Assembly (NCBI GenBank): GCA_001817215.1
Contig: MHHX01000019.1
Span: 16,302-80,301, forward strand
Direction: 5' to 3'
DNA length: 64,000 bases
Origin: Candidatus Brennerbacteria bacterium RIFOXYC1_FULL_41_11
Lineage (GTDB): Bacteria; Patescibacteriota; Minisyncoccia; UBA6257; Brennerbacteraceae
A program made the translations under genes and the position numbers. Every line of letters begins with the position of its first letter. The stretch's first letter is position 1. The notes below the pieces were generated by a model. That model was not told where the DNA came from and searched no databases. It worked only from the letters and a program-made list of their open reading frames with translations. This document shows positions 172-10,188 of this stretch, piece by piece.

Positions 172-1143
172 ATGAAAAAGCTTTTGCCAACATTAGCTTT
201 TGTTTTTCTTTCCTTTTTTTCTATATCGTTCCTTAAGATTGACCAGCTTTTAATTAACTATTTTGTCAATCGCGCTGATGCCGTGGAAGTGACAGCAATA
301 GTCGGCAGTCCTTCGCCATCCATGTCTGTTTCACCAACGCCATCACCGACGCCTTCGCAAGGCGGTGGTGGAGGAGGTGGGGGAGGCGGGATGATTTTGC
401 CACCGACTCAAGCAACAGTAGTTTTTTCTGGCAAGGCTTACCCTGGCAGTAATGTGGTGTTGCTTAAAGACGCGCAGGTCGCGACAACAGTAAAAGCCGG
501 TCAAGATGCGAATTTTTCTGTAACGCTTTCCGGTATCTCCGGAGGAAGCTATATTTTTTCTTTGTACGGTGAGAATAGCAGGGGGAATCGATCTTCGCTC
601 TTAACGTTTCCGGTTTCAATAGTTTCCGGCGCAACAACTCTGGTTAGCGGAATTTTTATCTCTCCGACGATTGCAGTTGATAAATCTGAGGTGAAAAGAG
701 GCGATAACATAGTTGTTTTCGGACAGTCTTTTCCGAAATCAGAGATCACAGTTTCTGTTTCTTCCGAAGAAGAGAATTTTTTTAAAATTATTTCCGATCA
801 GGCGGGTGCTTACCTGTTGAATCTCGATTCTTCAATATTGGAAGTTGGGGATCACTTCACGAAATCAAAATCAGCGATCTCCGGTGAGATCAGTGTTTTT
901 GGTAAATCTGTTAGTTTCAAAGTCGGGACCAAGAATGTTCTGGCCGTTCAGGAAACATTGGCATGCCATAGGCGTTCCGATGTTAATGGTGATTGCCGCG
1001 TGAACTTAACTGATTTTTCAATCGTTGCTTATTGGTATAAAAGAGCATTGACCTCGGCTGTAAAAAATGGGGTTGATTTTAATGCCGATGGAAAGGTAAC
1101 CTTAGTTGATTTTTCAATCATGGCTTATTATTGGACGGGATAG
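172..1143 (+). CDS. Secreted dockerin-domain protein: signal peptide, Pro/Thr/Ser linker, 11-residue poly-Gly run, beta-sandwich repeats, C-terminal type-I dockerin
   Basis: N-terminal hydrophobic signal MKKLLPTLAFVFLSFFSISF. Low-complexity PSPSMSVSPTPSPTPSQGGGGGGGGGGG. C-terminus has two canonical dockerin Ca-binding repeats, DVNGDCRVNLTD-FSIVAYWY and DFNADGKVTLVD-FSIMAYYW, with D1/N3/D5/V8/D12 spacing and a following aromatic helix. Confidence 0.8.
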   Translation: MKKLLPTLAFVFLSFFSISFLKIDQLLINYFVNRADAVEVTAIVGSPSPSMSVSPTPSPTPSQGGGGGGGGGGMILPPTQATVVFSGKAYPGSNVVLLKDAQVATTVKAGQDANFSVTLSGISGGSYIFSLYGENSRGNRSSLLTFPVSIVSGATTLVSGIFISPTIAVDKSEVKRGDNIVVFGQSFPKSEITVSVSSEEENFFKIISDQAGAYLLNLDSSILEVGDHFTKSKSAISGEISVFGKSVSFKVGTKNVLAVQETLACHRRSDVNGDCRVNLTDFSIVAYWYKRALTSAVKNGVDFNADGKVTLVDFSIMAYYWTG

Positions 1144-1196
1144 CAAAAATTCCGCAGGCTGGATTGGAAGCTTCAATTTTCAACAACTAATTTTAA

Positions 1197-2135
1197 ATGA
1201 TTAAACTGAGAAAACCAAAAATATTGATTGTTATTGTTACTTGCTGTTTGTTATTTGCCGATAGCGCTTTCGCCGTTTCGATTTACTGGCAGGCGCCTTC
1301 TGAAGTCGGAGTCGGGCAAGGATTTTCTGCGGCTTTGTTGCTTGATCCCTTGGGAAAAGAAATCAACGCGATTGAGGGCAGGGTTGTTATTCCTCGAGAG
1401 CTGGAAGTCATTTCTGTAAATTCAGGGAATTCCCTCGTTAGTTTGTGGATCGAGAAACCAAATCCGAGCGGTAGTGGAGAGATTGTTTTTTCCGGAGTGA
1501 TGCCGGGTGGGTACCTTGGCGAATTGGGTCCTTTTTGGGAGGGTTATCATCGTGGCGAAATTTTTAAAGTGATGTTTAAGCCGGTTGCCACCGGGCAGGT
1601 TGAGATTTTGACTAAAGATTTTTCCGCTCTTTTAAATGATGGTTTGGGGACAAAAACAAATCTTAATCTGAAAAGCCACTTATTAGTAATTAAATCGGAG
1701 ATTCAGGCACCTTTAGAAAATATTTCTGAAGACAGGGAGGCACCGGAAAAGTTTTCAGTAGAAATTATTAAAAATGAAAATCTTTTTGAGAATCAATGGG
1801 CACTAGTTTTTTCGGCTCAAGACAAAGGTTCGGGCATAAACCATTATGAAGTTCGGGAAACATCTCCTTATCTTTGGCAAAGGTTTTTTCAATCCCGTTG
1901 GCAGGTCACTGAGGATGGGCCGTATTTACTGAAAGATCAGAATCTGAATAGTTTGATCAAGGTTAAGGCTATTGATAACTTGGGAAATGAAAAAGAGTCA
2001 ATAATTCAAGCTCAAAACACGATTTTTTGGTATCAGGATCAGAGCCGCTGGGTTATAATGATATCTGTGATTCTTTCAGTCTTTTTTTTGAGAAAAGCTT
2101 TATTTGGCTGGTTTTTAAAATGCAATAAAGTGTAG
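1197..2135 (+). CDS. Membrane-anchored cohesin-like domain protein: signal peptide, N-terminal cohesin-like beta-sandwich, C-terminal TM helix
   Basis: Signal peptide MIKLRKPKILIVIVTCCLLFADSAFA. Segment GQGFSAALLLDPLGKEINAIEGRVVIPRELEVISV fits the cohesin pattern G-x-T/V..V.V....I.A....L.YD...LEV..V. C-terminal hydrophobic WVIMISVILSVFFL. Confidence 0.6.
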   Translation: MIKLRKPKILIVIVTCCLLFADSAFAVSIYWQAPSEVGVGQGFSAALLLDPLGKEINAIEGRVVIPRELEVISVNSGNSLVSLWIEKPNPSGSGEIVFSGVMPGGYLGELGPFWEGYHRGEIFKVMFKPVATGQVEILTKDFSALLNDGLGTKTNLNLKSHLLVIKSEIQAPLENISEDREAPEKFSVEIIKNENLFENQWALVFSAQDKGSGINHYEVRETSPYLWQRFFQSRWQVTEDGPYLLKDQNLNSLIKVKAIDNLGNEKESIIQAQNTIFWYQDQSRWVIMISVILSVFFLRKALFGWFLKCNKV

Positions 2136-2163
2136 AAGAATAGAATCCGGAACAGTAAGAAAT

Positions 2164-3882
2164 ATGAAAACAATCAGGTTATTGAAATTCTTTGTTTTAT
2201 TTTCTTTATTGTATTTTCTCGGTCCCGGCCTTGCCGCCGCGGCCTCTTTATATAGTTCTCCGGCTGTCGGCAATATTTCTTTGGGTCAGACGATCACGAT
2301 TGGCATTTACGTTTCAAGTCCTCATCAGGCAATGAATGCAATCTCGGGATCTTTGAATTTTCCCGCTGATAAGCTGGAGGTTTTAAGTGTTTCAAAGTCG
2401 GGTTCAATTGTTAACCTTTGGGTTCAGGAGCCGAGCTTCTCAAATTCTTCTGGTATGTTGAATTTTGAAGGAATTGTTTTGAATCCGGGGTTTACTGGTT
2501 CTGGCGGTAAGGTGATTTCAATCCAGTTCCGTGCAAAAAATATTGGCACGTCATTGATCTCCTTTTCCAGCGCTTCAATTTTGGCTAATGATGGGAATGG
2601 GACAAATATTTTGTCTGGTTTAACCGGATCGAGTCTTTCCGTGCAGCAACAAGGCAATACAGTGCCCGGTACAGACCCTATTGGCGTTGACCCCTTGACG
2701 CCGCAATCGCCAATAATTATTTCTCAAACTCATCCGGATCAGGAAAAGTGGTACAGTCTTTCTGATGTAAATTTTTCATGGCAGTCGGAACCAGGCGTGA
2801 CTGGCGTCAGGACCCTTTTTGACAAACTGGCCAGATCTCAGCCGACAATCATCAACGATTCTTTAACAAGCGTCAAAAGTGTCAAGGGGATTACGGACGG
2901 GATTTGGTTTTTTCATCTTCAGTTGAAGAATAAATACGGCTGGGGCGGAGCCTCTCATTTTCGCGTTCAAATAGACAAGACTGAGCCGGAGCCATTCTCG
3001 ATTAATTTTCTTGGAGACAAAAATTCGGTCAAGTCTCAACCAAAAATAAAATTTGAGACAGAAGATAAGCTTTCGGGAATTGATTATTATCTTGTTAAGA
3101 TCAATGATCCCGTTGCCGTGAAAGTTTATCCAGAAGAAGTCGGGGGCAGGGAGTATTCTCTGTCTGTTAACGAACCCGGTCGGGGGCTTGTAATTATTGA
3201 AGCCTATGATAAGGCCGGCAACTCGCGGATAGAGACAGAAGATTTTTTCGTTGAATCCCTTGAGCCTCCGGTTTTTGAAGAGTATCCAAAAGAACTGACG
3301 GCGGGAAAGATTTTGGTTGTGAAGGGGAAGTCATATCCTGATTCAGAAGTGATTTTTAAAGTTTTAAAAGACGACAAAGAGATGCCAGTTCGGTCGATTC
3401 ACGCCGGCCCCGACGGCAGTTTCGTTTTTGTTTATGAAGATAAAGTTGCTGCCGGGGTATATAAAGTCAGTGCCAGGACTGTTGCTGATGATAGCGGCCA
3501 GAGTTTTTTCAATGAACCGATTTTGATTCCCGTGAGTCAAGGATTTTTGCAATTATCCGGATTTACATTTCTTAGCGCTATTGGATTTATGGCGCTGGTC
3601 GTCGCCATCTCGTTTTTGGTATTTCATATTTGGCAGCACATCAAGAGGAGATCTTATTTAACCAAGGAGATCAGCGAAGCTAAGACCGTTCTGTTGGAAG
3701 AGTTTAAAAAGCTTAAACGTGAAGCGCAAAAGCAGGTTGATCTGCTTGAAAATTTGAGACAGTGGCGCGAACTGAGTTTTGAAGAAGCGGCGTTGTTGGA
3801 AGATCTCGGCAAAGAGATTGAAACCTTGAGCTCAGCCGAAAATTTGATCAAGAAAGAGATTGAGGATATTAATCAAGTTTGA
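2164..3882 (+). CDS. Membrane-anchored cohesin-like domain protein (paralog of 1197-2135) with extra beta-sandwich domains, a C-terminal TM helix and a cytoplasmic coiled-coil tail
   Basis: Signal peptide. N-terminal LGQTITIGIYVSSPHQAMNAISGSLNFPADKLEVLSV is cohesin-like and aligns with ORF 1197. Internal VVKGKSYPDSEVIF resembles VFSGKAYPGSNVVL of the dockerin protein, so the two share a beta-sandwich. TM FLQLSGFTFLSAIGFMALVVAISFLVF followed by a charged heptad-like tail. Confidence 0.6.
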   Translation: MKTIRLLKFFVLFSLLYFLGPGLAAAASLYSSPAVGNISLGQTITIGIYVSSPHQAMNAISGSLNFPADKLEVLSVSKSGSIVNLWVQEPSFSNSSGMLNFEGIVLNPGFTGSGGKVISIQFRAKNIGTSLISFSSASILANDGNGTNILSGLTGSSLSVQQQGNTVPGTDPIGVDPLTPQSPIIISQTHPDQEKWYSLSDVNFSWQSEPGVTGVRTLFDKLARSQPTIINDSLTSVKSVKGITDGIWFFHLQLKNKYGWGGASHFRVQIDKTEPEPFSINFLGDKNSVKSQPKIKFETEDKLSGIDYYLVKINDPVAVKVYPEEVGGREYSLSVNEPGRGLVIIEAYDKAGNSRIETEDFFVESLEPPVFEEYPKELTAGKILVVKGKSYPDSEVIFKVLKDDKEMPVRSIHAGPDGSFVFVYEDKVAAGVYKVSARTVADDSGQSFFNEPILIPVSQGFLQLSGFTFLSAIGFMALVVAISFLVFHIWQHIKRRSYLTKEISEAKTVLLEEFKKLKREAQKQVDLLENLRQWRELSFEEAALLEDLGKEIETLSSAENLIKKEIEDINQV

Positions 3883-5104
3883 GGCAGTGGTTTTTGAAGA
3901 AAAATATTTTTCTAGATTTTTGAGCATTTCCGGGATTTCCAGAGAGGCTTTGGCTCTTTACTCGATGCATTTTTTGCGTAACTTTGCCGTTGGATTGTTT
4001 GGGATTTTCGTTCCGATCTATATCTTTCAGAACGCCACAAAACCGGTCATTGTTTCGGATATTTTTCTGAGTAATCTTTTATGGGTAGTTTTTTATTTTT
4101 TGGCATATTCGTTTTCAATGTTGATTTCCTCGTTGTTTTTAGGCAACTTGATCTTTAATTCCTTAGGATTTAAGAGATCGATTTTTCTGAGCATTCTGCT
4201 TTTGATCTTTGGGATTTTGTTTTTGGTTTTTTCCGAGAAAGTTTTCTTGTGGTCATTTCTCTCTGCTTTCTTACTTGGAGCTTGTGTTAATTTTTACTGG
4301 ATTCCGTTTCATGTTTTTTTTATTCGTAAGGCTAATCAGGGAGGGAACTATGGCAAGGAAACTTCTTTCCAGATTTTTTTAGGTAATCTTGCTGGCATCG
4401 TTGCACCGTTTATCGCTGGTGTCGTTATTTATTTTTCCGGTTTTGAAAAAGTTTTTACGATTTCGATCGCGTTTCTTCTAGTTTCTTTGTTGCCGCTGTT
4501 TTTTTTCGTTTCTGAAGGATTGCACCGCAATCATGATTTGAAAAAGATCGTTTCTGGTTTTTTGAAAGATCGCAGTAGTCGCCGAGCCTTGATTGGTCTT
4601 GCTGGCGCCGGTGTCGAAGATACGTTGTTCGGGGTATTCTGGCCGATTTTGCTGTTTTTGACTCTTATGGATACGATCAAGATCGGGGCGATTACCACGA
4701 TCTCGACATTTTTGTCTATGGTCGTGGTTCTTTGGGCGGGCATGATTTTTGAAGGTGGAAAGAATAAAAAACTTTTTGAGTGGAGTGCAATTTTTAACAG
4801 CCTACTTTATCTGCCGAGGTTTTTTATCAACTTCGCTTCCGGAATCTATGTTTTGGATATTTTGGATAAACTCAACTCAAAAATTTATGGCGTTGGGCTT
4901 TCTTCAAGCACCTATGATCTGGCGAAGCGTTTTGGAGATTCTGATTTTATCTTGATTCGTGAAGTGGTCTTGCATTTGGGAAGGGTGTTGGCGCTTTTGG
5001 CGTCTTTGGTCTTACTGTTATTTTTCCCCTGGAGAACGATTTTTTTTCTGATTGGAGCGATCTCTTTGCTTAATCTTCTGGTGTTGAAGGAGCATAGCGC
5101 CTGA
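3860..5104 (+). CDS. Multi-pass membrane transporter, MFS-like. The true start may be the internal ATG at 3965
   Basis: Roughly 10-12 hydrophobic helices across 414 aa. The first 35 codons overlap the preceding gene. ATG at 3965 (MHFLRNF) lies just upstream of the first TM. Confidence 0.5.
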   Translation: MRILIKFEAVVFEEKYFSRFLSISGISREALALYSMHFLRNFAVGLFGIFVPIYIFQNATKPVIVSDIFLSNLLWVVFYFLAYSFSMLISSLFLGNLIFNSLGFKRSIFLSILLLIFGILFLVFSEKVFLWSFLSAFLLGACVNFYWIPFHVFFIRKANQGGNYGKETSFQIFLGNLAGIVAPFIAGVVIYFSGFEKVFTISIAFLLVSLLPLFFFVSEGLHRNHDLKKIVSGFLKDRSSRRALIGLAGAGVEDTLFGVFWPILLFLTLMDTIKIGAITTISTFLSMVVVLWAGMIFEGGKNKKLFEWSAIFNSLLYLPRFFINFASGIYVLDILDKLNSKIYGVGLSSSTYDLAKRFGDSDFILIREVVLHLGRVLALLASLVLLLFFPWRTIFFLIGAISLLNLLVLKEHSA

Positions 5105-5168
5105 ACCCTGTTTTGGCAATTCTGGTATAATTAATTAAATAGTGAGCAATTAATTTTTTTGTTTAAAT

Positions 5169-5408
5169 ATGTTTGATCAATTGCCATCTTTGATGGCGAA
5201 TCGATGGGTGATCTTGTTTTTGCTGTCTTGGTCTTTGGTTTGGAAGGGCCTGGCTTTATGGCGTGCCGCCAGAAGCAGCCAGAGAAATTGGTTTATTGTT
5301 CTCTTGGTTGTGAATACCCTTGGGGTTTTGGAGATTTTTTATCTTTTTTTCTGGGATAGCTTCAAACAAATTTCGAAGAAACTTTTTGGTTCGAATAATT
5401 CATCATGA
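5169..5408 (+). CDS. Small two-helix membrane protein, hypothetical
   Basis: 79-aa ORF with two hydrophobic segments (WVILFLLSWSLVW and FIVLLVVNTLGVLEIFYLFFW). Confidence 0.4.
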   Translation: MFDQLPSLMANRWVILFLLSWSLVWKGLALWRAARSSQRNWFIVLLVVNTLGVLEIFYLFFWDSFKQISKKLFGSNNSS

Positions 5409-5418
5409 ATTTTCAATT

Positions 5419-5778
5419 ATGAAAAAAGTTATTATTGTTGAAGATGATAACGCCATGGGCAACGTTTTAGCGGCCAGAATTAGGAACGAAGGATTTGAAA
5501 CCATCCACGTCCTGAACGGTGAGAAGGCCTTGTCCCAATTGAAGCAATCGCCGTTTGACTTGATGATTCTTGATTTGATTATGCCAAAGCTTGATGGCGT
5601 GGCTCTTTTGGAGAAGATGTCGCAGGACGGTTTTAAGATTCCGGTCATTATCGTCTCAAATTTGTCCCAGGATACAGACCGCAGTCGTGTGGCAAAATAC
5701 AACGTGATTCAATTCTTTTCGAAGTCCGATATCACCGTCGCCGAGATAGTCGGTTTTGTAAAAAACTTTTTGGCTTAA
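5419..5778 (+). CDS. Single-domain response regulator (CheY-like receiver only)
   Basis: MKKVIIVEDD...DLMILDLIMPKLDG...; receiver-domain acidic pocket and conserved K; no output domain; ATG at 5419 checked in sequence. Confidence 0.8.
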   Translation: MKKVIIVEDDNAMGNVLAARIRNEGFETIHVLNGEKALSQLKQSPFDLMILDLIMPKLDGVALLEKMSQDGFKIPVIIVSNLSQDTDRSRVAKYNVIQFFSKSDITVAEIVGFVKNFLA

Positions 5779-5781
5779 GAT

Positions 5782-7581
5782 ATGTTCGTCGGCGGAGCCA
5801 GGCAAAAAGTAGCCAGAAGAAGATCTGGTTTTTGGTTATATTTTTCATATATTTTTTCTTTGTTTTTGATTTCAGTTTTGATTCTGGGATCCGGATTTGT
5901 GTTAATCAGATTTGTTTCGGGATTGGAAAATAATTCCAGGTTGGTTAATTTGGCCGGCGGGCAGAGAACGTTGGCCCAGGACATTTTGAATATTAGTCTG
6001 CAGCTGGCTAGCAACAAAGACAGTGACACTCAGGTTTTAAAAAAACATCTTAATCTGAGTTTTAATACTTTCGTTGATAATCAAAAAGCCCTGGAAGAAA
6101 GAAACCCCGATCTTGAGCTTGGCGGTAAGAACAGTGATATTATTGATGCTTTTCTTTCCGAGATTAAGCCTGATTACCAAGGGATAGTTTCCAGCGCCTT
6201 GATTGTCAAATCTCGAGCCCCCGGCGATCCGGTCGTTTTTTCAGCTGTTCGGGAGATGATACGTTTTGAAAATGATTTTTCGATCAAGATGGACAGAGTG
6301 GTTTCTCAGTACGAATTAGAGTCTAAGGAAAAAGTTCTTTATGCTGAAAGCCTTGCCATTGTTATTGCCGGGGTGATATTGGGAGTGATTTTTTCTGAAG
6401 CTTTATTTATTTTTTGGCCTTTGTCCCAGAGGATAAATCGGACAATTTTTGAGACGGAAAGATTTCGTCTTGCGGTGGAAAATACTTCGGATGCGGTTAT
6501 TATATTTAACAAAAACGGTAGCGCCATATATTCGAACGAAACTTTGGAGCATTTTACCGGGTTCTCGGAATACGAGCTTTTGGGAGAAAGGTTTGAAAGC
6601 CAGCGTTTTTGGGGCGATTTGATCGAACCTGATTTTTTTGACCGTATTTGGGATCAGGTTTTCGAAAAAAAAGAAAAATTTTCCGGAGAATTGATTCAAA
6701 AAAATAAGGTTGGTATGGAACGTGATCTGAAAGTATCTTTTTTCCCGGTTTTAAACAAGAGATCGCGGGTCGAGTTTTTGGTTGGCATTTTAAGAGATAT
6801 TACTAGCGAAAAAGAAATTGATCGTGCAAAATCAGAGTTTGTCTCTCTCGCTTCGCATCAAATGAAGTCGCCTCTTTCAAAGACCAAGTGGTTGACGGAG
6901 TCTCTGCTGGCCGGAGATTCCGGAAAGTTTAATGAAGAACAGGATTGTCAACTTAAAGAGATTTATGAAAGTAACCAGAGGATGATAGATTTGGTTAACG
7001 GTTTGCTTGATGTTTCTCGAATCGAGCTTGGAGTTTTCAAATTTGAGCCTCAATTGGTCAATGTTTCAGAGGTTGTTAGAACGGTTCTCTCAGAGGTTGA
7101 AGTTCAGGCAAAGAAGAAAAATTTGAGGATTGTTCAGTTCATTCAAGAAGGATTGCCGCAGATTGAATCAGATCAAAAATTGATAAGGATTATTTTTCAG
7201 AACTTAATTTCAAACGCCGTAAAATATACCGGCAATAACGGTTTTGTGGAAATAACGGTCAAGATAGCAAAAAAAGATCAGGTCTTTGATCAAAAACCGT
7301 TGAAGGAAGATTCTTTGTTCATTTCCGTTAAAGATAACGGTGTCGGCATTCCCGAGAATCAAAAAGACAAGATTTTCTCAAAACTTTTTCGTGCTGACAA
7401 TGTGAGAATGATGGATGTTGAGGGCACTGGACTGGGGCTATATGTTGTAAAATCGATCATAAACAAGATCGGCGGCGAGATCTGGTTTGAATCTTCTGTT
7501 TCTACCGAGACCGTTTCCGGAACAGGAAATATTTCCGGGACGGCTTTCTATGTTTTGATGCCGCTTCATCAGAAGCAGTAG
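5782..7581 (+). CDS. Sensor histidine kinase: two TM helices flanking an extracytoplasmic sensor, then PAS, HisKA and HATPase_c
   Basis: TM1 FWLYFSYIFSLFLISVLILGSGFVLI, TM2 LAIVIAGVILGVIFSEALFIFW. PAS-like NTSDAVIIFNKNGSAIYSN. H-box EFVSLASHQMKSPL, N-box NLISNAVKYT, G-boxes DNGVGIP and GTGLGL. Confidence 0.85.
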   Translation: MFVGGARQKVARRRSGFWLYFSYIFSLFLISVLILGSGFVLIRFVSGLENNSRLVNLAGGQRTLAQDILNISLQLASNKDSDTQVLKKHLNLSFNTFVDNQKALEERNPDLELGGKNSDIIDAFLSEIKPDYQGIVSSALIVKSRAPGDPVVFSAVREMIRFENDFSIKMDRVVSQYELESKEKVLYAESLAIVIAGVILGVIFSEALFIFWPLSQRINRTIFETERFRLAVENTSDAVIIFNKNGSAIYSNETLEHFTGFSEYELLGERFESQRFWGDLIEPDFFDRIWDQVFEKKEKFSGELIQKNKVGMERDLKVSFFPVLNKRSRVEFLVGILRDITSEKEIDRAKSEFVSLASHQMKSPLSKTKWLTESLLAGDSGKFNEEQDCQLKEIYESNQRMIDLVNGLLDVSRIELGVFKFEPQLVNVSEVVRTVLSEVEVQAKKKNLRIVQFIQEGLPQIESDQKLIRIIFQNLISNAVKYTGNNGFVEITVKIAKKDQVFDQKPLKEDSLFISVKDNGVGIPENQKDKIFSKLFRADNVRMMDVEGTGLGLYVVKSIINKIGGEIWFESSVSTETVSGTGNISGTAFYVLMPLHQKQ

Positions 7582-7643
7582 TTGAATCGTTAAGAGAACA
7601 GATGGCTCTGAACGAAAATAAAAGTCGCCCCAAAAGACGGCTT

Positions 7644-8363
7644 TTATTTTTTAATGTTTATGATTGAAAAGTATTGCGACTCAGCATAGCCCCATTCGAG
7701 GTATCCTTCAAGAGAGATTTCTCTGCCGATATTGTTTTCCAAGAAAATCCACTGGTCGTTTATTGTCGGTATGATGTCAATCATTCCGGTTTTATCAGGG
7801 AAGTTTTCCACGTTGGGGCTGAGTTTTTCAAAAGATTCAGACAGTTTTAATAAATAATCATAGCCAATATCCGGAGCCGGTCTGGCGCCACGTACAACAA
7901 TGCCTTGCAAAATTAGTTTTGCGAGGTTATTGCCTTGCTGTGGCCATTGTCTCAAAGAATCCGGATAGGGATTGCAGTTTGAGTAGTCGATTGTCTTTAT
8001 GCTTTTTACGCTTAAGACTGAACGACCATAAGCTTCGCGGATCTTATCTTTGTTTTTCCATTCTTCCGGGACAGAGCCAGTGATGCGAGTGCATTTCCCC
8101 ATAAGATCGTCTTTCATGTTATCAGAGACCAGATAATAACCCATGATTTGTTCTTCTTGATAGGCTCTATCGTAATCTCCAAAACCAGTGACTTGGTAAT
8201 TGGCGAAAGTCAACTCACGCGTTTGCTTTTCTTCGTCAAGCAACCCGCTGGTTCGGATAACACCGGTAATTATTACCTGGTTTTTTCTCATGCTCCAGAT
8301 AAACCAACTGCTAGCTCCCAGGATAGAGCAAGCAGCTATAATTAAAATGATTATTTTTTTCAT
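7644..8363 (-). CDS. Secreted or lipoprotein-like hypothetical protein
   Basis: N-terminal MKKIIILIIAACSILGASS (signal peptide with a Cys, lipobox-like); no recognisable catalytic motifs. Confidence 0.45.
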   Translation of the reverse strand: MKKIIILIIAACSILGASSWFIWSMRKNQVIITGVIRTSGLLDEEKQTRELTFANYQVTGFGDYDRAYQEEQIMGYYLVSDNMKDDLMGKCTRITGSVPEEWKNKDKIREAYGRSVLSVKSIKTIDYSNCNPYPDSLRQWPQQGNNLAKLILQGIVVRGARPAPDIGYDYLLKLSESFEKLSPNVENFPDKTGMIDIIPTINDQWIFLENNIGREISLEGYLEWGYAESQYFSIINIKK

Positions 8364-8388
8364 CGACGACGTCAGCTTTAATTAATTG

Positions 8389-8459
8389 TCGGACCGGGCA
8401 GAATCGAACTGCCGTCACGAGTACCCCATACTCGCATTCTACCACTGAACCACGGCCCG
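8389..8459 (-). tRNA. tRNA-Pro (anticodon GGG)
   Basis: Reverse complement folds as a cloverleaf: acceptor CGGGCCG/CGGTCCG, D arm GTTC..GAAT, anticodon stem CGAGT/ACTCG with loop AUGGGGU (anticodon GGG, U33, G37), T arm GGCAG-TTCGATT-CTGCC. Confidence 0.8.
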
Positions 8460-8535
8460 CATTGTTTATGGCTAATTATATTTAATTATAACAAAAACAC
8501 TTCCGGCTTTAGGGCGGAAGGTGTTTTTTAGAGAA

Positions 8536-8730
8536 TTATTTTCTTGCTGTCTTGGATCTTGTTTTCAGACACTGAACACAGGATTTTACTCTTTTGCCAG
8601 ATGGTAAAGTAAGCCACTGCAAGTTTGGATATTTCCTTGTGCTCTTGACTGGATTGTAGTTGCCGCGTAAAAGATTTCTCTTGCCAACAAGAATTGAGCC
8701 TTTGCCGCAGACTGAGCAGATTCGTGACAT
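8536..8730 (-). CDS. rpmB: Ribosomal protein L28
   Basis: MSRICSVCGKGSILVGKRNLLRGNYNPVKSTRKYPNLQWLTLPSGKRVKSCVQCLKT matches the L28 family (Zn-ribbon). Start trimmed to the MSRIC ATG at 8728-8730; the upstream 24 codons are hydrophobic and non-conserved. Confidence 0.8.
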   Translation of the reverse strand: MSRICSVCGKGSILVGKRNLLRGNYNPVKSTRKYPNLQWLTLPSGKRVKSCVQCLKTRSKTARK

Positions 8731-9347
8731 AGATTTATATTTAGAAGCTAGAAAGTAAAATAAATACAGATTGAGTATACTTGAAAATACTGAAAATATC
8801 AAATCAGAATAAAAATGTCTCTGGTTGCGGGCGCGGCAACCAGAGACTGGGCAAACAGATTTTGTGCTATGGCATTTTCCTGGAGAGTTTTAGGTCGCGA
8901 ACCCGACAAAACCAGTTTTGCCGGAATATCTTGAAAACACGTCTGTTTCAAAAAATCTCCTTTGGATAATCTGTTCGGCTTGGCGGTACAACCAATTTCT
9001 CTGGGTTTACAGAGATGTTTGTTAATTTGCTCACTCCGCCAGTAGTCTCGAGCACGTTTTTCTCCTTGAGCGCCTCGGAAAATTAGTGCAGCCGGAGCTA
9101 GCTATCAATTTATACAACAAATTTACGATGATGTAAATCTTTAAGATACATCTTCGGTTTGATATAGTTAACTGGATGGATCCCGTAGTGAATTTTTGAT
9201 AGCCCTGCCTACCGGTAGGCAGGTTCTCAAGTATTTTTTGCTACCGTTTATTTGTGTGATAAAGATGATTTAATAGAGTTTGCACTATAAGACATGTTTA
9301 ACGTATTAACATTTGAGGCTAAAAATTAGTCAAAAACCTACTACGGG

Positions 9348-9968
9348 ATGGAAACAGTATTTTATTTTTTAGTTTTTATCTTTTCTGCCGTTATTCATGA
9401 AGTGTCTCACGGTTTTGTCGCTAAGGCTCTTGGCGATGATACGGCGGAGAAGGAAGGCAGGTTGACTTTGAATCCAATTAAGCACCTTGATCCAATCGGT
9501 TCGATTCTTCTGCCTTTTGTTTTTTACCTAACGTCAAAACTCGCCAGTGGTCAGGGTATGATTTTCGGTTGGGCAAAACCAGTGCCTTTTAATCCTTATA
9601 ATCTGAAAAATCCCAAACAAGGAAGTCTTTTGATCGCTCTGGCCGGTCCGTTGTCTAATTTTTTTGTAGCGTTTTGTTTGAGTTTGGTTTTGCGACTAGG
9701 CATGGTCAATGGAGTTCTGGCGGAATTATTTGGCATTATTGTTTTAATCAATCTGGCACTTGCTGTTTTTAACTTGATGCCGATTCCACCGCTTGACGGT
9801 TCAAAAGTCTTGTTTGGATTGTTGCCTGATAGCTTGGCGCATGTTGAGGATTTTTTAGAAAGAAATAGTATGATTTTTTTCCTGATGTTTTTTTTGTGGG
9901 GCGGTGATTTAGTTTATTCAATTGTTTTCGGGCTTTTTTCGATTTTCACCGGCGTTGGCGGTTACTGA
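9348..9968 (+). CDS. Membrane Zn-metalloprotease, site-2 protease / peptidase M50-like family
   Basis: HEVSHGF (HExxH) in the first TM helix, LNPIKHLDPIGS motif, multiple TM helices, LMPIPPLDGSKV near the C-terminus. Confidence 0.7.
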   Translation: METVFYFLVFIFSAVIHEVSHGFVAKALGDDTAEKEGRLTLNPIKHLDPIGSILLPFVFYLTSKLASGQGMIFGWAKPVPFNPYNLKNPKQGSLLIALAGPLSNFFVAFCLSLVLRLGMVNGVLAELFGIIVLINLALAVFNLMPIPPLDGSKVLFGLLPDSLAHVEDFLERNSMIFFLMFFLWGGDLVYSIVFGLFSIFTGVGGY

Positions 9969-10188
9969 GTTGATTTTTAACCACATTTTTGATAAAGTCT
10001 TTATGCTTAGATGTTTTGACATTTGAGCTCTAACATTTGAGCTTTTTTATTTTAGCTTATCCCGTACTGAATCTTGGCCTTTTGGTTGTTGTCGAGAAGA
10101 TGGGTCGAGTAGAATAAATCGGCTTTAATAATTATTTTTTTGCTTCGCTTAATTTAAGTTTCGCGATTCTTAAAATTTTAGTAACAGG

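Follow-up and report, generated by a model that had tools for sequence, protein, structure and literature searches.

The 64-kb stretch of DNA analysed here (the window) comes from Candidatus Brennerbacteria, a member of the Candidate Phyla Radiation (CPR; Parcubacteria group, Patescibacteria), in line with the reduced-genome organism supposed in an earlier note on the sequence. It starts 171 nucleotides (nt) upstream of gene A, the first of three adjacent genes, and is part of a 201-kb scaffold (locus L001). Genes A (172–1143, 323 amino acids, aa), B (1197–2135, 312 aa) and C (2164–3882, 572 aa) are all on the + strand, exactly where that note had placed them, and are separated in the window by 53 nt (A–B) and 28 nt (B–C). 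A encodes a dockerin protein and B and C encode membrane-anchored cohesin proteins, with immunoglobulin (Ig)-like domains and transmembrane (TM) helices arranged as follows:

172–1143, + strand: gene A, open reading frame (ORF) for a secreted or N-terminally anchored Ig–Ig–dockerin protein, 323 aa; UniRef name ‘Dockerin domain-containing protein’
172–282, + strand: A aa 1–37, N-terminal hydrophobic signal peptide or signal anchor (hydropathy segment 3–28), with a possible cleavage site between ADA and VE
283–408, + strand: A aa 38–79, short strand-like motif VEVTAIVG, Pro/Thr/Ser-rich linker and Gly10 tract (aa 64–73), read from the sequence
409–957, + strand: A aa 80–262, two bacterial Ig-like domains (weak Pfam Big_6 match, E 7e-5; Big_6 precomputed on many orthologues)
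967–1140, + strand: A aa 266–323, type I dockerin (Pfam PF00404; PDB dockerins; invariant loop 1)
979–1014, + strand: A aa 270–281, Ca loop 1
1075–1110, + strand: A aa 302–313, Ca loop 2
1197–2135, + strand: gene B, ORF for a 312-aa protein with signal peptide, cohesin, Ig-like domain and C-terminal TM helix (AlphaFold pLDDT 92.3); UniRef ‘Cohesin domain-containing protein’
1275–1700, + strand: B aa 27–168, cohesin-fold domain (Foldseek; B-family profile; orthologue Pfam matches)
1734–2021, + strand: B aa 180–275, Ig-like domain (D..PE.F ... SGI.HYEV ... A.D..GN), paralogous to C domain 3 (hhalign; BLASTP E 7e-7)
2046–2117, + strand: B aa 284–307, C-terminal TM helix followed by a short basic tail (hydropathy 2.06; AlphaFold helix 282–311)
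2164–3882, + strand: gene C, ORF for a 572-aa protein with signal peptide, cohesin, three Ig-like domains, TM helix and cytoplasmic helical tail (AlphaFold pLDDT 80.7)
2242–2649, + strand: C aa 27–162, cohesin-fold domain, better conserved than any other part of C (NAISG, LWVQEPSFSN, NFEGIVLNPGF, LANDGNGTNIL)
2704–3543, + strand: C aa 181–460, three Ig-like domains (domains 2–4; AlphaFold strands; invariant columns)
3553–3636, + strand: C aa 464–491, TM helix (hydropathy 2.61; AlphaFold helix from 469)
3637–3879, + strand: C aa 492–572, cytoplasmic charged helical (coiled-coil-like) tail starting HIKRR (AlphaFold helices 469–534 and 539–571)

The C-terminus of A reads ...RRSDVNGDCRVNLTDFSIVAYWYKRALTSAVKNGVDFNADGKVTLVDFSIMAYYWTG and contains both dockerin repeats, DVNGDCRVNLTD-FSIVAYWYKR and DFNADGKVTLVD-FSIMAYYWTG, in the arrangement typical of type I dockerins, i.e. 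two segments of ~22 residues, each a 12-residue EF-hand-like loop (ligands D/N at positions 1, 3, 5, 9 and 12) followed by a helix. Pfam Dockerin_1 matches aa 269–318 (profile positions 2–53/57) at 32.8 bits (gathering cut-off 22.9; E 8.1e-8), and the same stretch matches solved cellulosomal dockerins in the PDB at E 0.01–0.04; the dockerin originally recognised from its motifs is real. A is 100% identical to a protein of Candidatus Brennerbacteria bacterium RIFOXYC1_FULL_41_11 and has >1650 homologues with 54–66% identity over the mature part. Among 80 of these the loop-1 ligands D/N/D/N/D are 100% invariant, as are the FS(I)..Y W and C-terminal WTG motifs, while just 50% have D at position 1 of loop 2. 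The consensus of the family has two almost identical repeats (DLN.D.[RK]V[ND]LVDFSI.AY..), making the dockerin module internally symmetric. The linker of A is variable, but within the Gly10 tract (361–390) six consecutive Gly (aa 67–72) show little or no variation in the family. No catalytic domain or carbohydrate-binding module (CBM) was found in A.

Most A orthologues carry a Cys-rich ‘GExCDG...C’ module (DUF4215-like) before the Gly tract; A of the window lacks it and has the Pro/Thr/Ser-rich linker in its place. Cys265 (964–966, just before the dockerin) and Cys275 (994–996, position 6 of loop 1) co-vary, with both present in 42, neither in 34 and one only in 4 of the 80 A sequences, and with corresponding counts of 10, 47 and 1 among 58 genomes. 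The pair is probably the signature of a disulfide staple shared by a sub-clade to which the window belongs.

B and C each begin with a hydrophobic signal-like segment (cleavage sites between AFA and VS and between AAAA and SLY, respectively). Hydropathy, AlphaFold helices and heptad enrichment bear out the signal peptides, C-terminal TM anchors and coiled-coil-like tail of C that had been proposed. In this tail (81 residues, 41% charged) the hydrophobic fraction at heptad positions a/d is 0.57, compared to 0.30 overall, and profile searches weakly match the b stalk of ATP synthase. In predicted topology both proteins agree with type I membrane proteins whose cohesin is the domain most distant from the membrane.

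The predicted models show a nine-stranded β-sandwich (jelly-roll) fold superposing on solved cohesins, as the earlier note would have it. The top Foldseek matches of the B domain are 6kgd/6kgc/6kgf/6kge (C. acetobutylicum CohA2), 5aoz, 2jh2 and 4fl4_K, and the B-family profile matches R. flavefaciens cohesins at E 0.005. Searches with Pfam Cohesin (PF00963) fail on the window’s own B and C, neither of which gave any domain match when taken singly, but succeed with all 10 of the full-length orthologues tested (25.3–32.6 bits, cut-off 24.1; residues ~30–150), and 27/47 C-family and 12/51 B-family members match at E≤0.01. Both are real membrane-anchored cohesin proteins. For C there are >1252 homologues, ~40% identical along the whole protein, and for B 99 matches at 30–45%. 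The two are paralogues (hhalign E 3.9e-40) that have the cohesin and one Ig-like domain in common, C having two additional Ig-like domains and the tail. Residues common to both cohesins (NAI.G; S....LW...P; F.G...PG; L.NDG.GT) map to strands 3, 5 and 6 and the 8–9 loop of the AlphaFold models, a sheet which we take to be the dockerin-binding face of type I complexes.

Domain 4 of C is Big_13-like, Big_13 being matched in 46/47 C orthologues. Domain 2 (aa 181–272; 2704–2979) matches no Pfam family and is marked by an invariant S.THPD...WY plus P227, K238, G259-W260, H265 and I270-D271. The GK[AS]YP[GD]S[NE]V module that A and C had been thought to share reduces to a weak generic Ig-like resemblance (BLASTP E 0.006; hhalign E 5e-4, probability 30%). 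Five C variants of 700–726 aa (P0030, P0037, P0049, P0067 and P0075) have an N-terminal ‘23S rRNA intervening sequence protein’/four-helix-bundle domain (PF05635, PF22296), and may be gene-call fusions with an inserted upstream ORF. UniRef names for these exact proteins are ‘Dockerin domain-containing’ and ‘Cohesin domain-containing’ (NCBI: hypothetical), so the domain calls as such are not new.

Relatives were found by scanning one genome per species with two peptide patterns for C, and 80 loci were fetched, spanning Colwell-, Wolfe-, Jorgensen-, Portnoy-, Wildermuth-, Sung-, Uhr-, Falkow-, Magasanik-, Komeili- and Doudnabacteria and others. A relative of C is present in at least 370 species-level genomes, and the wide spread is also seen in 1369 clusters at 50% identity (E≤1e-30). 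Gene order was determined with profile hidden Markov models on six-frame ORFs in the 59 loci with enough upstream sequence: A-B-C have the same order and strand in 58 (median gaps 10 nt for A–B and −24 nt for B–C), and this recurrence argues that the arrangement, first suggested as a triad to be looked for in related genomes, is not due to chance. There is one dockerin ORF per locus, always gene A (73 fetched loci with a dockerin, window-scaffold copies included), no A lacks the dockerin, and the whole window contains exactly one dockerin and two cohesins. Nine independent database clusters of ~870 aa (P0002, P0003, P0005, P0008, P0016, P0017, P0018, P0028 and P0040) are B-C fusions, consisting of full B including its TM helix followed by full C including its signal-like segment. 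Because B keeps its TM helix ahead of the C signal-like segment, the two ectodomains would both remain extracellular, and such fusions could still be split by signal peptidase. They provide ‘Rosetta-stone’ support for B and C acting together.

The most conserved parts of the trio are the A dockerin, the first Ig domain of A and the C cohesin. Across 58 genomes mean pairwise identity is 65% for the A dockerin, 61% and 53% for the two Ig domains of A, and 61% for the C cohesin, compared to 38–49% for the other C domains (41% for the tail) and 37% for the B cohesin. Between Brennerbacteria and Microsyncoccus the mature part of A is 56% identical, close to ribosomal protein S7 (58%) and above an M50 protease (47%). 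Such ribosomal-level conservation is more in keeping with a structural adaptor or base than with a host-specific adhesin, and counts against the earlier suggestion that the trio is itself the attachment apparatus. Distance matrices of A and the C cohesin correlate with r 0.69, a value that may be partly inflated as slow domains give less noisy distances, while r is 0.39 for A and the rest of C, 0.40 for A and the B cohesin and 0.39 for the C cohesin and the rest of C; bootstrap 95% intervals for all three differences exclude 0. Conservation, the co-variation of A with the C cohesin and the common residues on the presumed binding face together favour docking of A on C, with B as either the partner of C or a second docking site.

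The three genes had been read as a self-contained system, but on the 201-kb scaffold and in most relatives they are the 3′ end of a longer same-strand cluster. On L001, three same-strand genes upstream of A (scaffold positions 5795–9972) encode proteins of 840, 196 and 305 aa, to none of which a Pfam family could be assigned. The secreted 196-aa protein is a single module, which recurs at the C-terminus of the 840-aa protein (...TITY.CVGN); the 305-aa protein has a signal peptide, two β-sandwich domains and a C-terminal TM helix. A TM protein of this chaperone-like type (signal peptide, one or two β-sandwich domains, TM helix) is encoded immediately upstream of A in 37/54 loci. WxLIP_PGBD was detected in 6 (best E 2.1e-8) and PapD_N in one of 43 family members; the L001 member matches WxLIP_PGBD at E 0.03 and the family matches EfmWxLIP1 (PDB 9i1y) at E 0.027, homology to PapD-like chaperones being weak. 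Profile matches of this family to the ‘Pizza’ designer propeller in the PDB were dismissed as repeat artefacts. The B-family and chaperone-like-family profiles align over 168 columns (hhalign E 1e-5, probability 82%); as far as profile comparison goes, the cohesin-TM and chaperone-like TM proteins may be distantly related two-domain β-sandwich proteins.

These upstream families recur ahead of A in relatives. The module common to the 196- and 840-aa proteins is present in 28 loci, in each case C-terminal in proteins with widely varying N-terminal parts (~300 to >1400 aa). Seven of 10 pilin-like proteins match NCBIfam NF058581 (CPR_Pam_pilin_C, Pam pilus system pilin subunit) at 73.6–154 bits (cut-off 55). 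These are encoded in loci L018, L020, L022, L047, L052, L066 and L077, just upstream of the chaperone-A-B-C block, and by NCBIfam classification of their sequences the secreted proteins upstream in these related loci are bona fide Pam-pilus pilins. The 196-aa protein of the window scaffold is tied to such strong matches only through iterative search. Pam pilins were not recognisable among the PDB sequences searched. The predicted mature N-terminus of A (aa 38–46, VEVTAIVGS; 283–309) is a short alternating β-strand motif. In many orthologues (e.g. DVTATVSS, SVTATVSP, NITASVNS and EITATIKI, compared to VEVTAIVG in the window) it resembles the N-terminal ‘VTATVTA’ strand of the pilins, and a flexible linker comes next; by this resemblance it may be a donor strand.

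Pam filaments have been solved in Ca. Mycosynbacter amalyticus (Troman et al. 2026, bioRxiv 10.64898/2026.03.03.709456), where the pilins PamA/B/E/T have a nine-strand β-sandwich N-terminal domain and assemble by donor-strand exchange, PamC/D are PapD-like chaperones with an unusual C-terminal TM helix, and PamR is a 32.8-kDa TM ‘tether’, predicted to be RbmA-like with two fibronectin type III domains. The model put forward there requires a membrane tether and uses TM-anchored chaperones; a conserved major facilitator superfamily (MFS) gene lies near pam operons, which are distributed mainly in Saccharimonadia and Microgenomatia (bioRxiv 10.64898/2026.03.03.709456). The loci described here resemble this system in that upstream pilins of related loci match the Pam pilin model, the gene before A has the layout of PamC/D, B is similar to PamR in size and layout (two β-sandwich domains plus TM helix, compared by description) and an MFS gene is close by. 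They differ in that the tether, a single RbmA-like protein in PamR, would here be divided between a dockerin subunit and membrane proteins with cohesins.

We put at about 0.5 the probability that a Ca-dependent complex of A with C, and possibly B, serves a Pam-type pilus/adhesin operon as its conserved base or tether at the membrane; that the dockerin protein and the two membrane cohesins form a conserved surface complex is held with much greater confidence. The data above show domain identities, folds, topology signals, paralogy, synteny and the patterns of conservation and co-variation; from them we infer dockerin-to-cohesin binding, the choice of cohesin and the pilus link. In a monoderm CPR bacterium, A, B and C would form a Ca2+-dependent cohesin–dockerin complex at the external side of the cytoplasmic membrane. 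The paralogues B and C would be type I membrane proteins working as a pair, each presenting a single cohesin at the tip of a stalk of Ig domains, with the charged helical tail of C reaching into the cytoplasm. A would be exported, its C-terminal type I dockerin plugging into the cohesin of C and possibly that of B. Within a longer operon, the trio would be the invariant module next to the membrane, and the genes ahead of it would provide a Pam-type (donor-strand-exchange) pilus, with variable large and small pilins/adhesins and a membrane-anchored PapD/WxLIP-like chaperone. A-B-C would then tether this pilus or adhesin to the cell, A acting as adaptor with its N-terminal pilin-like strand and flexible linker towards the fibre and its dockerin towards the membrane cohesins.

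Several observations weigh against a tether of this kind. The Pam preprint, text and supplement, never mentions cohesin or dockerin, and the tether named there is PamR; none of A, B or C matches an NCBIfam Pam model. In the window genome itself the 196-aa protein reaches only 15.8 bits with NF058581 (E 0.012; full-length alignment), below the cut-off of 55, and the 840-aa protein gives no match to the Pam pilin model. Scores of A with a position-specific scoring matrix of the pilin strand are modest (median 2.7 bits versus −2.1 for shuffled sequences), with C scoring 1.7, and profile comparison of A with the pilin module showed no similarity, A having no pilin domain. No chaperone-like gene is found immediately upstream of A in 17/54 loci, and in L019, the sole exception to the conserved gene order, C stands alone. 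To these must be added the absence of any Pfam Cohesin match at E≤1 for B and C of the window and the possible inflation of the A/C-cohesin correlation. In L019 (7156–11713), C without A, B or pilus-like genes directly follows mnmA-, metallo-β-lactamase- and ndk-like genes; the same genes precede the entire cluster in the Microsyncoccus locus L006, and the block was probably lost or moved in the L019 lineage.

An MFS transporter gene overlaps the end of C and is followed by genes for a small DUF5652 protein, a response regulator and a PAS histidine kinase (3860–7581 in all; the latter two at 5320–7581). No gene downstream of C, these four included, is conserved across the 80 fetched loci. The other large window ORFs that were tested are housekeeping genes (among them EF-G, SecY, DnaK, GroEL, UvrA, DnaB and CysS). 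A promoter and terminator scan was uninformative, as terminator-like matches outnumber those in shuffled sequences yet none is at a gene boundary.

Comparison with other known systems identified partial counterparts. WxL clusters of Firmicutes consist of a small WxL protein, a large WxL protein and a WxLIP (Hassan et al. 2023, PMC10599100), the last defined by DUF916, DUF3324 and a TM helix. The upstream trio here is similarly made up of a small protein consisting of one module only, a large protein with the same module at its C-terminus and a TM-anchored protein with two Ig-like domains; the resemblance stops there, as cohesin and dockerin genes are not described in WxL clusters and no WxL domain is present. 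An assignment of the small upstream proteins to WxL was rejected, with no WxL domain (PF13731) in 21 of them or in the 196- and 840-aa proteins of L001. Single-cohesin cell-surface anchors of cellulosomal bacteria (C. thermocellum OlpA/OlpC, 3ul4/4dh2; R. flavefaciens ScaE, 2zf9) are SLH- or sortase-anchored and dock enzymes or scaffoldins, whereas here there is a C-terminal TM helix (plus the cytoplasmic tail of C), a non-catalytic Ig–Ig dockerin protein and a fixed triad. In non-cellulosomal pairs (C. perfringens GH33/GH84 toxin-complex cohesins, 2vo8, 2w1n, 2jh2 and 2o4e; Archaeoglobus fulgidus, 2xdh) the modules are on secreted enzymes or soluble proteins, with no membrane-anchored paralogue pair, pilus-gene linkage or phylum-level conservation. 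A comparable CPR protein is SEML1_0315 of the Saccharibacterium Southlakia epibionticum, an essential dockerin-domain envelope protein (Wang et al. 2023, PMC10633639). Like A, it combines Ig-like domains with a dockerin and has no enzyme domain, and it adjoins a response regulator and PAS histidine kinase as the window trio does; it differs in length (927 aa), in having three Ig-like domains and in lacking adjacent cohesin genes (PMC10633639). The literature searched for cohesin or dockerin in Patescibacteria, CPR or Parcubacteria gave no more than passing mentions, and the paper on the Microsyncoccus transcriptome, supplements included, is silent on the cluster. In the searchable literature, neither the conserved triad nor its link to a pilus operon appears to have been described.

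Among other explanations, the one that survives best, although we consider it doubtful, is a stand-alone surface display or adhesion unit, as the earlier note proposed, in which A, held on B and C, contacts the host and the pilus genes are merely co-located. The cohesin–dockerin anatomy is compatible with such a unit, the trio is also intact in the 17 loci without an adjacent chaperone-like gene, and the extra Cys-rich GExCDG module of most A orthologues could bind a ligand. However, conservation of A at the level of a ribosomal protein across lineages with presumably different hosts would be unusual for a host-recognition adhesin, and in most loci the close spacing between the trio and the upstream genes on the same strand speaks for a single operon. 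A better adhesin candidate than the A-B-C trio is the variable large protein encoded upstream.

It is unlikely that the trio is instead a housekeeping envelope scaffold (S-layer or wall anchor, or a link between cytoplasm and surface) unrelated to host attachment or pili. Such a role would agree with the very high conservation (at least 370 species genomes, 1369 clusters), with a cytoplasmic helical tail of C that is itself conserved (41% identity) and with the essential dockerin-domain envelope protein of Southlakia (PMC10633639), likened to A by description. Against it, no wall-synthesis or division genes are linked to the trio, the sole recurrent neighbours being the pilin- and chaperone-like genes.

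Cohesin-like modules that do not bind dockerin are known, and the modules of A, B and C might not bind each other. The B/C folds could, for example, act as pilus-protein N-terminal domains or tether domains, with the dockerin a Ca-stabilised cap or glycan binder. The nine-strand β-sandwich N-terminal domain of Pam pilins, the two-domain TM tether PamR of about the size of B (32.8 kDa) and the weak alignment between the B-family and chaperone-like profiles noted above would all be in keeping with this. The genes are fixed at 1:2 and adjacent in 58/59 loci, however, divergence of A co-varies specifically with the cohesin domain of C, and the residues common to B and C cohesins are on the presumed type I dockerin-binding face; we consider this reading quite improbable. 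A miniature cellulosome for carbohydrate degradation, suggested by the domains as such and by a CPR metaproteome paper that read expressed cohesin/dockerin proteins of a Shapirobacterales metagenome-assembled genome in this way (bioRxiv 10.1101/2021.08.21.457207), is dismissed: there is one cohesin per protein, with no multi-cohesin scaffoldin and no CBM, the window’s only dockerin is on a non-catalytic Ig–Ig protein, and neither the neighbouring genes nor those large ORFs of the 64-kb window that were tested include a glycoside hydrolase. The non-cellulosomal character claimed in the earlier note holds on each of these counts; its observation is confirmed and its interpretation partly supported, the trio not being self-contained and probably being a base or tether, not itself the adhesin.

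The membrane base or tether remains our preferred reading. A more detailed and distinctly tentative version of it is that in much of the Patescibacteria (Parcubacteria/Paceibacteria, ABY1 and Doudnabacteria) a donor-strand-exchange pilus might be fastened to the cytoplasmic membrane by a cohesin–dockerin joint instead of an usher, sortase or single tether, with A, as a universally conserved adaptor, donating its N-terminal strand to the last pilin, the dockerin bound to a B–C heterodimer and the C tail coupling the fibre to the cell interior. If such a joint is real, it would be the first cohesin–dockerin pair serving as a pilus anchor, and a core CPR host-attachment organelle.

CPR/Patescibacteria account for a large part of bacterial diversity and are host-attached, with surface machinery largely lacking assigned functions. 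The trio is a three-protein module with a predictable dockerin–cohesin interaction, ribosomal-level conservation and a physical link to the recently discovered Pam operon, and what is new here is the use of cohesin–dockerin in, or next to, a CPR pilus operon. Cohesin and dockerin proteins of CPR bacteria have repeatedly been misread as evidence of cellulosomes, which the trio helps to correct. If A-B-C are the base or tether of the pilus, this would explain how a donor-strand-exchange pilus is held by a monoderm without usher or sortase, and would extend Pam-type systems to Parcubacteria and give cohesin–dockerin a new biological role.

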